From positions 2,709-66,708 of the forward strand of contig LBOM01000005.1 of NCBI GenBank assembly GCA_000989515.1: a stretch of DNA of 64,000 bases. The letters run 5' to 3'. The stretch comes from Candidatus Nomurabacteria bacterium GW2011_GWE1_32_28. GTDB taxonomy: Bacteria; Patescibacteriota; Minisyncoccia; Phycocordibacterales; UBA9973. The position numbers and the translations under genes were made by a program. Below the pieces are notes generated by a model. That model saw nothing but the letters and a program-made list of their open reading frames with translations. It was not told where the DNA came from and made no database searches. Numbering within the stretch: position 1 is the stretch's first letter; each line of letters opens with the position of its first letter. This document shows positions 20,717 to 53,376 of the stretch, one piece after another.

Positions 20717-20739
20717 TACGATATAAGTATTTTAATAAA

Positions 20740-20773
20740 GGTAGCAAACTCTGCTATAGCAGAGTTTGCTACC
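20740..20773 (+). terminator. Rho-independent terminator after ileS
   Basis: GGTAGCAAACTCTGC-TATA-GCAGAGTTTGCTACC, a 15-bp stem followed by a T-run. A near-identical hairpin is at 31646-31679. Confidence 0.8.
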
Positions 20774-20800
20774 TTTTGTCTTTTTCTATACAATAGACCT

Positions 20801-39301: not shown

Positions 39302-39854
39302 TAATTTTTAATTGATTCTATAGTTGCTTTTTACCCAAAAATATGCGAAAATAGAGTTGTGGATATTTGGCCTCAAAAGCTATTGTTCTTTTATTAGACG
39401 AGTTATCCACATAATATATTGCTCTATCTTATAGCTATATATTATACTATCTAAAGTGTTCAGAGATTGCGCTTTTATTGAGTGTGTTCTGTGTTCACAA
39501 TTTATATTTGTTTTTGTTCATAATTTCGTCGAAAAAATTTTGAATAAAGGCAAGCCCAACAAAGGTCAAAAATTTGTTTGGGTAAAAGAAAGGTCATTGA
39601 AAACTGAATAAAAAATATCTTATAAAAAGTAAATTTTTTGTAAGAGATTTTGTTCAAGTTTTTAATCTCAATTGAAAAATAAAAAATATTAAAAACATTT
39701 TTTATCATCAATTGATGTTTAAAGAAATCTGTTCATTATTAAATTTTTTCGTCGCATTATTAATTTTTATAAGTTATAGACGAAGAAAAAATAATGATAG
39801 AAAAAATACGCTTTTGGTTTTGTCGAAACTAACTTAATGGCGTAGAAAAAAATT

Positions 39855-43282: not shown

Positions 43283-43494
43283 TTTTGTTTGCCAATTTTT
43301 TTATCCAAACCTAACCACCTCCAATTCTTCCACTTCACCTAATTTCCCACAAGTCCCACAAGTTGAACTTGTGGGAAATTAAATCTTAATTAAATAAGGG
43401 CCTTCTTTTCATAGTTATCCACAATTAGCTTTCCCCGAAACCAGGTTTCGGGGAAGGAGAAGGTGGGTTTGTTTTTGTTGTTCATTATATTATA

Positions 43495-44199: not shown

Positions 44200-44364
44200 G
44201 TGGTCCCCACAAGTTCAACTTGTGGAAACACTAAAACCACCTGATGGTGGTTTTAGTGTTTATTTTATGGTATAATAACAATACGTAATATTTATACTCT
44301 TTTGGTCGATACAAAATCTCTTTTTATATTTATACGCATTATTATAATAATTTCTAAAAATTTT

Positions 44365-44877: not shown

Positions 44878-44893
44878 AATTTAATAAATCTTA

Positions 44894-44912
44894 TCGGGTG
44901 TTGGACACCCGA
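44894..44912. repeat. REP-like palindrome, copy 1
   Basis: TCGGGTGTTGGACACCCGA. It begins a composite repeat of about 125 bp that is also found at 45789. Confidence 0.85.
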
Positions 44913-45085
44913 CAGAAAGAAAGTTTTTTCAAAACACTCACAAAATGTGGGTGTTTTTTATTATATTATGAGATAATGAGTAAGTTGTATTTTTATAATT
45001 TAATTTAAATATTTTTTTATACATTAAGTGTAAGGGGAATATTTTTTTACTAATGACGTATAGAAAAGTTCCACTTATATCTTCC

Positions 45086-45106
45086 GTCGGGTGTCCAACA
45101 CCCGAC
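45086..45106. repeat. REP-like palindrome, copy 2 (loop flipped)
   Basis: GTCGGGTGTCCAACACCCGAC. The central TGG/CCA is inverted relative to the other copies. Confidence 0.85.
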
Positions 45107-45177
45107 AGTTGAATAAATTTGAAGATTTTTTGTTGGTCTGTATACTTTTTTACTTTTTAAAAGTATATAATTAGATA

Positions 45178-45774
45178 ATGGATCAAAAACAACCATGGTT
45201 TATAAATTTGTTTTTAAATTTTAAAGGAAGACTTTTAATTATAGTTTTTATTACGATCTTTGTTACGTTAATTACAGTTATTCATTCTTTTGTATTGAGA
45301 TTAAATCCTTATTTAATCATAGAGTTAGTAATCACTGTTTCTTTTTTTGGTATGTATTTTTCTATTCCTCAATTGATTGCTACTCAAAAAAGTGAAAAAT
45401 TTAGAAAAAGATTATATCTTAAAAGTGGTAAAAAAATATTATCATTATTATCTTCGATTTCTTTCTATTTTATTTTATGTATTTTAATTGTTTTTTTATT
45501 TGGTATGGTTCTTGCTACTATATTTACTTCATCTGACAATGGAGAAATTTGGGCTTATTCTCTTTTTGGTTCTGGTTTATATGTTTTTATCTTTTGGTTA
45601 GCTTCTTTCTTAGTTGGTGTAATTTCTTTATTATTAAATTCTAATAAATCGGAAATTGTAATAGTTCAGGAAAGAACTCCTGTTAAAGTTTATTTTTCAT
45701 CTATTATTTTTATTTTTTTATCCGTACTTGTATTATTCTTTGTATTTATATTTACTGTAGAAAATTATTTATAA
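45178..45774 (+). CDS. Hypothetical polytopic membrane protein
   Basis: 198 aa with about 5 hydrophobic spans. Confidence 0.5.
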   Translation: MDQKQPWFINLFLNFKGRLLIIVFITIFVTLITVIHSFVLRLNPYLIIELVITVSFFGMYFSIPQLIATQKSEKFRKRLYLKSGKKILSLLSSISFYFILCILIVFLFGMVLATIFTSSDNGEIWAYSLFGSGLYVFIFWLASFLVGVISLLLNSNKSEIVIVQERTPVKVYFSSIIFIFLSVLVLFFVFIFTVENYL

Positions 45775-45788
45775 TTTTACTTTATTAT

Positions 45789-45815
45789 CTTGTCGGGTGT
45801 TGGACACCCGACAAG
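45789..45815. repeat. REP-like palindrome, copy 3
   Basis: CTTGTCGGGTGTTGGACACCCGACAAG. Confidence 0.85.
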
Positions 45816-45962
45816 ATAAGGAGTTTTTATAAAACACTCATATTTTACGGGTGTTTTATTTTGTGTTATGAGATAATAGTTATGGTTGTATTTATAATTT
45901 TATTTTAATAAAGATTTTTAAAAGATTTCCAGTTATTGGATTTCTGTAGATCTTAATTTTTT

Positions 45963-46622
45963 ATGAGAAAAAATCCTCTTGTAACTAATCAGTATTATCA
46001 TATTTATAATAGAGGAGTCGATAAAAGAGATATTTTTATGAATAAATCTGATTTAGATAGATTTATTTTGAGTGTAAAGGAATTTAATATAGTTAAACCT
46101 ATAGGTAGTATTAAAGAGCGATTAATAGAATTAAAAGCCCCGTCGGGTGTTGGACACCCGACGGGGCTTGTTTCTATTGTCTGTTATTGTTTTAATCCAA
46201 ATCATTTTCATTTTATTTTAAAACAAGAAGTAGATGGTGGAATTTCAGAATTTTTTAAGCGTTTACTTGGTGGATATACAAATTATTTTAATTTAATACA
46301 CAAGAGAAATGGGGCATTATTTCAAGGAAGATTTAAGTCTAATTTGGTTGACGATGAAGAATATTTTTTAAAAATTCGTCCTTATGTGCATTTAAATTAT
46401 TTAGTACATGATATTCCAAAAGAAAAAAAGTATTTAATATCATCAAGCAAGAAAGAATATGATACTAATAAATTTACTATTGTTTCAAAAAAAGAAGCAA
46501 AAGAACTTTTGGATTTTTATAATGGTAATCTAAATTATAAAAAAGAATGCTTAGATGTAATTTCTTTTATTCGAGAAGAAAGAGGATTAACTTCTTTGTT
46601 TGAAGAAGAATTATTACCATAA
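45963..46622 (+). CDS. REP-associated tyrosine transposase (RAYT; IS200/IS605 TnpA-like HUH Y1 enzyme)
   Basis: YYHIYNRGVDKRDIF, the HUH motif NPNHFHFIL, ALFQGRFKS and the Tyr motif RPYVHLNYL. REP palindromes flank it. Confidence 0.8.
   Translation: MRKNPLVTNQYYHIYNRGVDKRDIFMNKSDLDRFILSVKEFNIVKPIGSIKERLIELKAPSGVGHPTGLVSIVCYCFNPNHFHFILKQEVDGGISEFFKRLLGGYTNYFNLIHKRNGALFQGRFKSNLVDDEEYFLKIRPYVHLNYLVHDIPKEKKYLISSSKKEYDTNKFTIVSKKEAKELLDFYNGNLNYKKECLDVISFIREERGLTSLFEEELLP
46137..46167. repeat. REP-like palindrome, copy 4, inside the RAYT coding sequence
   Basis: GCCCCGTCGGGTGT-TGG-ACACCCGACGGGGC (14-bp stem). It is translated in frame as APSGVGHPTGL. Confidence 0.85.
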
Positions 46623-46635
46623 AAATTATCCCTTA

Positions 46636-46654
46636 TCGGGTGTTGGACACCCGA
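46636..46654. repeat. REP-like palindrome, copy 5
   Basis: TCGGGTGTTGGACACCCGA, 14 bp after the RAYT stop codon. Confidence 0.85.
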
Positions 46655-46723
46655 AATGGAAAGTTATACACCTTTTTGCTTTATTTTTGTTGTGTAATGT
46701 TTTCATTAGCATATACTTGAACA

Positions 46724-47374
46724 ATGGATAAAATAAAAATATTTTTTGGTGCTCACAAAATTTTGAAAATATTTATGTGGGCTTTTTTAATTCTACTTGG
46801 ATTGTATATTATTTTGGTTGCTTTTCGTGTTGTTAATCTTTTTAATTTAGATAAGACAAATGCACAAGTAGAAAAGATTCATAATACAAAACTTTCTATA
46901 GATGATGTGATGGGTGTAAATCTTCCTTCTGATCCTGGTGTTGAAGCTGATAAAACTGTGCAAGGTATCGATGCTAATGAAAATGGTATTCGTGATGATG
47001 TGGAGATAGCTATATTTAAAGAATATCCCAATTCTGCAAAAACTCGCGCAGTCCTTTTGCAGTATGCTTTAGCTTTGCAGATGGAAGTAATTCAACCTAT
47101 TGAGAATACAGTTACTGTGACAGAAATTATAACAGAACAAAGCAGGGCAGATACTTGTGTTGCCGATACTCTTGTACCCAGAGAAAGTCCTGAATCTTCA
47201 AGACATTATTCTGATGTGGAAAAAATTAACACTTTTATTAAATCTATTGAAGGTAAACAATTTAATACAGAGGTAAGAAAATCAAATCATCAAAATTTTA
47301 TGAAAAATCTTAGAAGTTTTGGAGAATCAACTAATGAAATTTGTGACATAGATATTTTGAAGTTAACAGATTAA
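46724..47374 (+). CDS. Hypothetical membrane-anchored protein
   Basis: 216-aa ORF with an N-terminal TM helix. Confidence 0.5.
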   Translation: MDKIKIFFGAHKILKIFMWAFLILLGLYIILVAFRVVNLFNLDKTNAQVEKIHNTKLSIDDVMGVNLPSDPGVEADKTVQGIDANENGIRDDVEIAIFKEYPNSAKTRAVLLQYALALQMEVIQPIENTVTVTEIITEQSRADTCVADTLVPRESPESSRHYSDVEKINTFIKSIEGKQFNTEVRKSNHQNFMKNLRSFGESTNEICDIDILKLTD

Positions 47375-51039: not shown

Positions 51040-51160
51040 TTTTCCACAAGTTCAACTTGTGGGGGAAGGGGGAGATTGAGTTGTTTGAAGGTTGTTATTA
51101 TTATTAGGAGTAGTATTATTAGTAAGGAATAATTCTTTAACAAATCTTAGAGGTATTGTT

Positions 51161-52794: not shown

Positions 52795-53376
52795 ATGGAA
52801 ATTCTGGGAAAAATATTAGGGAGTGGAGCTCGGGTAAAAATAATGCGTCTTTTTTTGTTGAATTCTAAGAGTGGATTTAGTAAAAAAGATATAGTAAAAA
52901 GAAGTCGTGTAAGTTCTAGTATCGCAGGTAAAGAAATAAAACTTTTATCTTCTTTGGATTTTATTAAAAAACATAATATAAATTGGTTTTTTAATCCACT
53001 TTTTAAATACGGGAAAGAATTTGAGAGACTTTTAATAGGGTCTGAGACATTAGACAACAAGATAATTGCTGATACTTTTAAAAAAGTTGGACGAGTAAAA
53101 CTTCTATTAGTTTCTGGTATTTTTATTAAAAATAAAGACACTAGAATTGATCTTCTCATTGTTGGAGATAAAATGAAAAAAAATAAAATTGAAGAAGGGA
53201 TACATAAGTTAGAAGCTGAAATAGGTACTGAACTCGTTTATGCTATTTTTGATACAAAAGAGTTTATATATAGATTAAATATGTATGATAAACTCGTACG
53301 GGACATACTTGATTTTCCTCACAAGATTATTTTTCAAGCTAAAGAGTTATCCACACAAGCTTTAAAAAAATCCTAA
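52795..53376 (+). CDS. Hypothetical protein with an N-terminal wHTH-like region
   Basis: 193-aa ORF. ARVKIMRLFLLNSKSGFSKKDIVKRSRVSSSIAGKEIKLL resembles a wHTH. Confidence 0.5.
   Translation: MEILGKILGSGARVKIMRLFLLNSKSGFSKKDIVKRSRVSSSIAGKEIKLLSSLDFIKKHNINWFFNPLFKYGKEFERLLIGSETLDNKIIADTFKKVGRVKLLLVSGIFIKNKDTRIDLLIVGDKMKKNKIEEGIHKLEAEIGTELVYAIFDTKEFIYRLNMYDKLVRDILDFPHKIIFQAKELSTQALKKS

Follow-up and report, generated by a model that had tools for sequence, protein, structure and literature searches.

The Escherichia coli RAYT, a tyrosine transposase associated with repetitive extragenic palindromes (REPs), and TnpA of the insertion sequence (IS) IS608 both recognize a hairpin in single-stranded DNA. 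The former belongs to a module known as the REPtron (RayT/YafM; PDB 4ER8), and the latter belongs to the IS200/IS605 group together with ISDra2 and IS200. Palindromes inside genes are also known. According to the available portions of one report, there are intragenic REPs, REP-supplied stop codons, and tyrosine-transposase genes whose 5′ or 3′ ends are overlapped by REPs (Di Nocera et al. 2013, PMC3733652), and Rickettsia palindromic elements (RPEs) lie in frame inside functional genes (Ogata et al. 2000, cited in PMC3733652). The same portions describe no conserved REP in the middle of a RAYT open reading frame (ORF), Nunvar 2010 makes no mention of REPs inside RAYT genes, and our literature search found no paper linking RAYTs to the Candidate Phyla Radiation (CPR), Patescibacteria, Parcubacteria, or Nomurabacteria.

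Here, we analyzed a 64-kb stretch of DNA (the window; ~30% GC) from a contig of Candidatus Nomurabacteria bacterium GW2011_GWE1_32_28, in which five copies of a perfect palindrome lie around and within a gene for a RAYT-like Y1 HUH transposase (219 amino acids [aa]; 45963..46622, plus strand). It is a system of a known kind, the REP/RAYT module, in a new host group and with a conserved, coevolving hairpin copy inside the transposase gene. As in the REPtron, the protein combines the Y1 HUH fold with an HUH motif and a catalytic Tyr, the gene is apparently single copy with conserved neighbors, the gene is bracketed by its own short GC-rich hairpins (a different hairpin type for each paralog), related CPR genomes contain the same hairpin at scattered sites, singly and in inverted doublets, and in some sister clades GTAG stands at the foot of the stem. 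Unlike the REPtron, this module has a CPR (Paceibacterota) host and a low-looking copy number, its stems are perfect palindromes whose orientation is visible only in the loop, its protein falls below the NCBIfam RAYT cutoff and has a family-specific α1-β2 link of ~26 aa, its ORF contains cognate hairpins in frame, at one or two conserved sites, and a copy lies across the promoter, which is of the leaderless type. The GTAG that forms the RAYT-type 5′ foot of REP hairpins is not found at the window's hairpins, whose stems start with (G)TCGG; it lies within the stem of sister loci L154, L158, L161, and L170, and other loci have TTAG or TTGG.

IS200/IS605 elements share the catalytic fold and the subterminal hairpins on both sides of a ~0.7-kb unit, and by analogy the CPR enzyme presumably also recognizes its hairpin as a single strand. 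They differ in that the CPR unit gives no sign of multiple copies or mobility, its end and internal hairpins are identical perfect palindromes, and solo hairpins are dispersed without the gene. The likeness to intragenic REPs and RPEs, as far as the available portions of the 2013 report describe them, lies in palindromes that are read in frame in functional genes and supply short extra peptides; in CPR relatives, the host genes are topA, leuS, lepA, gatA, purL, Mur ligase genes, and an iscS-like gene. In contrast to the cases in those portions, the decorated CPR gene is the transposase itself, the hairpin stands in mid-ORF, the site is family-wide, and its sequence covaries with the flanking copies.

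Hairpin copies of a locus evolve in concert

The 64 kb contain exactly five copies of the palindrome TCGGGTGT-NNN-ACACCCGA, always within 44894-46654, when up to 3 mismatches to the pattern TCGGGTGTNNNACACCCGA are allowed; all five copies of TCGGGTGTNNNACACCCGA are perfect, compared with an expectation of 0.02 from dinucleotide shuffles. The five copies around the 219-aa gene that had been noticed in the original prediction were thus all recovered, with cores starting at 44894, 45087, 45793, 46143, and 46636. Four have the loop TGG, and the copy at 45087 has CCA and is therefore in reverse orientation. REP1 (44894..44912, plus strand, loop TGG) opens the first copy of a composite intergenic module, and REP2 (45086..45106, minus strand, 9-bp stem, CCA on the plus strand) lies upstream of a 198-aa membrane ORF. 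The upstream copy, REP3 (45785..45819, plus strand, 16-bp stem, core 45793-45811, loop TGG), lies ~170 nucleotides (nt) before the ATG of the RAYT gene, and the downstream copy, REP5 (46636..46654, plus strand, loop TGG), begins 14 nt past its stop codon. The internal copy, I1 (46135..46169, plus strand, loop TGG, core 46143-46161), is read in frame as K58-APSGVGHPTG-L69. It had been described as translated within the gene, and this held, with the correction that its perfect stem measures 16 bp (46135-46169) rather than 14 bp. As single-stranded DNA, it is the most stable of the five window hairpins (ΔG of −23.6 kcal/mol; z = −10). The locus is not an assembly artifact, because it is 100% identical over 6.6 kb in the three independent assemblies that were read and its protein is found on 24 contigs. 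No hairpin polymorphism between strains was seen among those three assemblies over the 6.6 kb.

To place the window in its family, we collected 80 metagenome loci whose RAYT is 40 to 85% identical at the amino acid level; 74 remained after removal of redundancy, with hosts among Nomurabacteria, Giovannonibacteria, and other Paceibacterota. Hairpins were named by site: U at the promoter, I1 in frame at ~+180 nt, I2 in frame at ~+450, and D at or after the stop codon. A perfect palindrome occupied the in-frame I1 site in 52 of the 74 loci, down to ~40% identity, and U and D were present in 61 and 60 loci, respectively. The second in-frame palindrome, I2, was found in 14 of the 74 and is confined to one subclade. 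These counts are lower bounds, as they do not include clade B hairpins in which a 6-bp outer stem encloses a mismatched inner part. In the protein, I1 falls in the α1-β2 link and I2 after the catalytic-Tyr helix. Around the gene, GC-containing perfect hairpins reached 3.8 per kb, compared with 0.30 per kb in the rest of the 80 loci, with density peaks at −60 to −30 (U), +150 to +200 (I1), +450 (I2), and +660 (D). The density of stems cognate to the locus was 1.61 per kb inside ORFs and 0.021 per kb in flanks beyond −300/+150, a 77-fold difference, and 7 of the 11 cognate stems in those flanks lay within 1.6 kb of the gene.

The window itself is a slightly eroded member of this family: it keeps I1, D, and the distal U copy (REP3), has two extra copies nearby, and has lost the proximal promoter copy of U together with its −10 hexamer. 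A close relative, L001, has a RAYT with 76% identity and the same downstream neighbors; there, TCGGACGT-NNN-ACGTCCGA stands at four places and nowhere else in 20 kb, twice upstream, once in frame at the I1 site, where the stem has 20 bp, and once past the stop codon. All 29 homologs at 68 to 85% identity (alignment A1) have the segment at the I1 position. Family members without I1 include L166, L176, L179, L180, L189, and L191, and in these the segment measures 12 to 15 aa, compared with 15 to 30 aa where I1 is present. I1 and I2 are patchy in clade C, where some intact genes have U and D only, and in more distant representatives the inserts at I1 or I2 are expanded and repetitive. In 18 loci of clade B (L131-L156), the TAA loop of the D hairpin is the RAYT stop codon, and its left arm encodes the last 3 to 4 residues (...P-D-R-A-stop), e.g., at L138:10640-10680. 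Like in-frame intragenic REPs and RPEs, I1 is identical to extragenic copies in an ORF that stays intact, and homologs without it exist.

Three loci have a palindrome of palindromes at I1 (L188:10187-10230, L190:2457-2504, and L196:2277-2320), with an overall stem of 20 to 22 bp; each is a doublet of two inverted hairpins, REPIN-like, and is read in frame. At L175:1516-2253, a RAYT homolog is truncated exactly at I1: residues 69-219 follow an unrelated ORF fragment of 70 codons in another frame, which starts after the locus's own upstream hairpin; the hairpin downstream is intact. The internal hairpin may have undergone a rearrangement here, and the case hints that the I1 site can be recombinogenic.

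The sequence of the stem differs from locus to locus, and the 52 I1 hairpins comprise 31 distinct inner stems. The inner 7 bp of I1 matched the other hairpins of the same locus in 88 of 102 comparisons and matched the I1 of other loci in 40 of 1,326. Since the copies of a locus share one stem and the stem differs between loci, the U, I1, I2, and D copies evolve in concert across the family. Because all copies change sequence together across a large gene family, the intragenic hairpin is an old, built-in feature of the family and not a chance insertion. Stems track the protein tree, with TCGG(GT/AC)GT in clade A, AGATAGnGnn-TAA in clade B, and cTTGGCGGT and relatives in clade C; neighboring variants are separated by single base-pair differences. 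Among 38 I1 hairpins with 3-nt loops, both sides had changed in 11 of 12 stem pairs; this set was chosen beforehand for at least 7 perfect pairs, so that the percentage paired is not independent evidence. The G:C pair fifth from the loop never varied in 37 distinct I1 hairpins. Where paralogous RAYTs stand on one contig, each has its own stems.

The constraint acts on the nucleic acid and not on the protein. The peptide encoded by I1 varies (SGVGHP, SGVQHP, SDVQRP, SDVGRP, QIAPKALS, and LGGLTAK), and pairing is kept. A loop flip from TGG to CCA turns G into Q, and a stem change from GT/AC to AC/GT turns G and H into D and R. Rather than an internal segment conserved as protein in homologs without the palindrome, we therefore found the opposite. 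At I1, clade B has the loop TAA in every case, out of the reading frame (CCT AAG), and the promoter copy occurs in either orientation; flipping the I1 loop to TTA would create an in-frame TAG, which can account for its single orientation. The hairpin-coded residues 59-65 are the only internal stretch of the AlphaFold2 (AF2) model of the protein with a predicted local distance difference test (pLDDT) value below 50, and the internal copies encode a variable, probably disordered surface loop. A selected protein motif was rejected as the reason for I1 by the varying peptide and the low model confidence.

The RAYT-like protein and dispersal of its hairpin

A hypothetical protein of Candidatus Nomurabacteria bacterium GW2011_GWE1_32_2... 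matches the 219-aa product with 100% identity, and the product has 3,052 relatives at an E value of ≤0.001 and 3,190 cluster representatives at an E value of ≤1e-10. The hidden Markov model of Pfam Y1_Tnp (PF01797) matched it, as expected for a transposase, with the threshold barely reached (23.3 bits against a cutoff of 23); a precomputed PF01797 match is present in most homologs. The HUH and Tyr motifs proposed earlier correspond to H81-F82-H83 (46203-46211) and Tyr141 (46383-46385), and H81, H83, and Y141 are invariant in family alignments of 74 and 131 sequences. An AF2 model built on the shallow, close alignment A1 (pLDDT of 37) was set aside in favor of one built on the 131-sequence alignment of three clades (pLDDT of 88). 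The top PDB match of the latter model in Foldseek was 4ER8_A, the E. coli RAYT with a REP hairpin (E value of 1.2e-5; TMt of 0.64), followed by IS608 TnpA and ISDra2 TnpA. Judged by its score against the curated NCBIfam RAYT equivalog, the window protein belongs to a distant subfamily and is not that equivalog.

A weak hhalign match combined with the secondary structure of the model aligned the core of the window protein (residues 68-162) with residues 46-136 of E. coli RayT. By the same means, the α1-β2 link was estimated at ~26 aa in the window protein and ~3 in E. coli RayT. About 25 residues unexpected in typical family members had been predicted between the N-terminal region and the HUH motif, and relative to E. 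coli RayT that length stood; only the last 6 to 11 residues are hairpin-coded, and the first part, PIGSIK, is conserved protein.

Copies away from the gene were sought with one genome per species and by exact match to the 19-mer only, so that copy numbers are minimum values. The identical palindrome was found on at least 4 to 7 different contigs in related CPR genomes, either singly or in inverted doublets placed back to back (CAZXCD01 has at least 9 copies on 7 contigs, and MFTF01 has at least 7); these counts are low compared with those of classical REPs. Together with the fold match to 4ER8 and the cognate flanking hairpins, this dispersal bears out the earlier proposal of a REP/RAYT-type system in a CPR genome, of which the internal hairpin is a genuine in-frame copy, and extends REP/RAYT biology to the CPR. 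The palindrome recurs in the related genomes, at these low counts, and not elsewhere in the window itself.

Among the 62 copies listed, 27 lie inside long open frames, 6 of these in the RAYT's own ORF; among the 56 non-RAYT copies listed, 21 are inside other genes and mostly read SGVGHPT or SGVQHPT. In-gene copies of the 19-nt palindrome stand alone or form inverted doublets and are read in at least three frames. Pfam matched 8 of 9 host ORFs, namely, topoisomerase I, LeuRS, LepA, an amidase (GatA-type), a PurL-type protein, two Mur ligases, and a class-V aminotransferase; the ninth had no Pfam match. In several cases, the same site of the same housekeeping gene is occupied in different genomes. 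In-frame copies in other genes were found in GTDB CPR genomes at L017, L027, L030, L032, L033, L045, L048, L053-L056, L059, L062, L071, L073, L081, L099, L102, and L109. REPs are thus often inside essential genes of these tightly packed genomes as extra loop residues, which matters for annotating and modeling CPR proteins.

Two stem variants can share a genome. The class-V aminotransferase (IscS-like) gene of L062 contains a TCGGGTGT... hairpin next to a TCGGACGT... hairpin (L062:6595-6640), and the genome of L001, where the RAYT stem is TCGGACGT, also has a solo TCGGGTGT copy at L087:898, on the same contig.

Origin and upkeep of the in-gene hairpins

We favor, with a probability of roughly 0.6, a vertically inherited REP/RAYT module of Paceibacterota in which a cis-acting enzyme would seed and convert the hairpins of its own gene. 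As proposed from sequence patterns, the enzyme would recognize the hairpin extruded from single-stranded DNA, by analogy with its characterized relatives, and would act mainly in cis, near its site of synthesis. It would seed hairpin copies around and within its own gene and repeatedly overwrite, or convert, them to the current master sequence. Inside the ORF, selection would leave as survivors the copies in two permissive loops with a stop-free frame and orientation. A further, more tentative possibility, which we hold to be somewhat doubtful, is that the locus is a self-targeting device, in which the RAYT recognizes the hairpins in its own ORF and promoter and thereby throttles its own expression or marks the gene as the REP master template. 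If self-targeting were true, RAYT activity in vivo would have left its direct footprint in the lockstep change of the promoter, in-frame, and terminal copies, which would offer a handle on the long-open question of how REPs are spread and kept up by RAYTs; as the in-frame copies must stay translatable, comparison of sister loci could then map the exact unit that the enzyme replaces. In any case, the CPR family provides many natural replicates in which promoter, in-frame, and terminal hairpins change together, so that specificity determinants can be read from covariation (e.g., the G:C pair that never varies and the changes between variants at stem positions 5 and 6).

Several results weigh against the favored reading. 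Homogenization is incomplete, as 14 of the 102 within-locus comparisons were nonidentical. The palindrome TCGGGTGT-NNN-ACACCCGA has no copy in the 59 kb of the window outside the cluster, and dispersal is seen in relatives only, at a low copy number in a scan for exact matches that gives minimum counts. NCBIfam NF047646 (REP_Tyr_transpos) reached 23.9 bits against a cutoff of 80 and aligned residues 70-150 only, and searches of PDB sequences with family profiles found no relative, fold comparison alone giving one. The cis-acting copy-or-convert step is something that we infer from the pattern of stems, and the very high I1 occupancy over deep divergence could equally reflect positive selection for a function.

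That last point leads to the main rival, a selected autoregulatory circuit in which the enzyme would bind or nick its own hairpins (U, I1, I2, and D), limiting its own synthesis, with the copies kept for feedback. The position of U speaks for it. In 30 of 53 loci, exactly 6 nt separate the end of a −10-like hexamer from the ATG, the gap that a leaderless transcript should have. With its own end 1 to 22 nt upstream of this hexamer, an operator-like position, the U hairpin fills the spacer and the −35 zone, outside the mRNA of the gene; a hairpin over a leaderless-type promoter would suggest a simple autoregulatory design. The occupation of I1 by the locus's own stem in 52 of 74 loci over a range of 40 to 100% identity, the 77-fold excess of cognate copies inside the ORF relative to distal flanks, and the stability of I1, the highest in the window, also fit a circuit. 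Against it, I1 and I2 are patchy in clade C, with some intact genes having U and D only, and the window has neither the proximal U copy nor its −10 box. Moreover, in-frame copies persist at fixed sites in unrelated housekeeping genes, so that persistence alone is no proof of regulation. On balance, we consider the circuit rather unlikely. An effect at the RNA level, with the hairpins acting as mRNA stabilizers, attenuators, or RNase sites unrelated to the enzyme or arising as a by-product of a selected peptide, is less probable by a wide measure. The window I1 scores as terminator-like on both strands, and D follows the stop codon as REP mRNA stabilizers do; however, U lies upstream of the −10 box in most loci, outside the mRNA, T-rich tails after I1, I2, and D are not general (means of 2.2 to 3.2 T per 10 nt), and a structural RNA role needs no shared sequence among copies. 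The peptide varies and is predicted to be disordered, which speaks against a peptide by-product, and an Rfam scan gave no family at the gathering threshold, the matches below it being chance hairpin matches.

The remaining explanations concern mobility. A compact, hairpin-bounded unit of IS200-like size (~730 bp from U to D), a fold that also matches IS608 and ISDra2 TnpA, and a genomic context that differs between major clades would suit an autonomous IS200-type insertion sequence whose end hairpins are alike by chance. This is improbable, if a little less so than an RNA-level role, given that the 24 contigs with the window protein collapse to one neighborhood (3 places shown and 21 similar, the 3 that were read being identical) and that downstream neighbors are shared between the window and L001 and within subclades. 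The best structural match is to a domesticated RAYT, and solo hairpins are dispersed without any gene. No second RAYT-like match was found in the 64 kb of the window; in the three loci with two RAYT-like genes on one contig (L135, L186, and L197), the second is 41 to 44% identical and has its own, different stems. Finally, the original prediction had offered the internal hairpin as a possible snapshot of REP spread, that is, a recent accidental insertion into the RAYT gene of this genome. The internal core of the window is indeed identical to the four external copies, but this view is refuted: 52 of 74 loci have a palindrome at this very site, in 31 stem variants that match their own flanking hairpins, and the segment is present in all 29 homologs of alignment A1. 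Relative to these alternatives, the module with a cis-acting, hairpin-converting enzyme remains our preferred reading.

Promoter module and other palindromes

The composite repeat reported earlier is real. Positions 44890-45008 and 45789-45908 align with 81% identity over a 32-nt REP part and 70% over an 87-nt part that contains a second hairpin and a TTATGAGATAAT box. Module copy 1 (44922..45008, plus strand) comprises an AGTTTT..ACAC motif, a terminator-like hairpin (44931-44957), and the TTATGAGATAAT box at 44966-44977. Copy 2 (45822..45908, plus strand), directly upstream of the RAYT gene, has the motif, a hairpin at ~45829-45859, and the TTATGAGATAAT box at 45866-45877; it is the probable RAYT promoter region in the window's clade. 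The order after REP3, a AGTTTTCCACA-type motif, the hairpin, and TTATGAGATAAT, is conserved upstream of the RAYT gene in L001, L120, L121, and L075.

AGTTWTCCACA-type motifs also stand ~30 to 40 nt upstream of −10-like boxes at other, unrelated window genes (intergenic, at 39401-39411, 43413-43423, 53345-53355, and 46662-46671) and occur in L001, L075, L120, L124, and others. The −10 box of several genes ends 6 nt before the start codon. At the gene that follows the RAYT, for example, AGTTATACAC at 46662 and TATACT at 46712-46717 are followed by 6 nt and an ATG at 46724. As the motif recurs before the −10 boxes of unrelated genes, we read it as belonging to the promoter of the next gene and not to the REP, and the composite repeat is a REP plus an ordinary promoter module. 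The motif's recurrence suggests that it is a common promoter element and that leaderless starts may be widespread in these genomes. We rejected a DnaA box beside the REPs: the motif fits TTWTNCACA, and the window has no enrichment of it (9 found against 11.3 expected). An intragenic intrinsic terminator was likewise dropped as a general mechanism, as the 10 nt after I1 contain a mean of 2.2 T and at least 6 T in only 4% of loci.

Between REP2 and REP3, and between the two module copies, lies the predicted 198-aa membrane ORF (45178..45774, plus strand), for which no family match was found. Module copy 1, REP2, and this ORF together look as if they arose by local duplication or insertion.

A second palindrome family, (TC)CCACAAGT-TCA/TGA-ACTTGTGG(GA), is intergenic at window positions 43354-43376, 44207-44225, and 51044-51062, and no second RAYT-like gene accompanies it in the window. 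The CCACAAGT/ACTTGTGG family also occurs in L076 and L124 and resembles the stems of the L085 RAYT paralog, CCACATGT-cag-ACATGTGG. An unrelated perfect palindrome of 18 bp, AAAGGTAGCAAACTCTGC-tata-GCAGAGTTTGCTACCTTT, lies at window positions 20737-20776 within an open frame of 186 codons on the plus strand, with a T-rich tail behind it, and could be a gene-end terminator or another intragenic hairpin.

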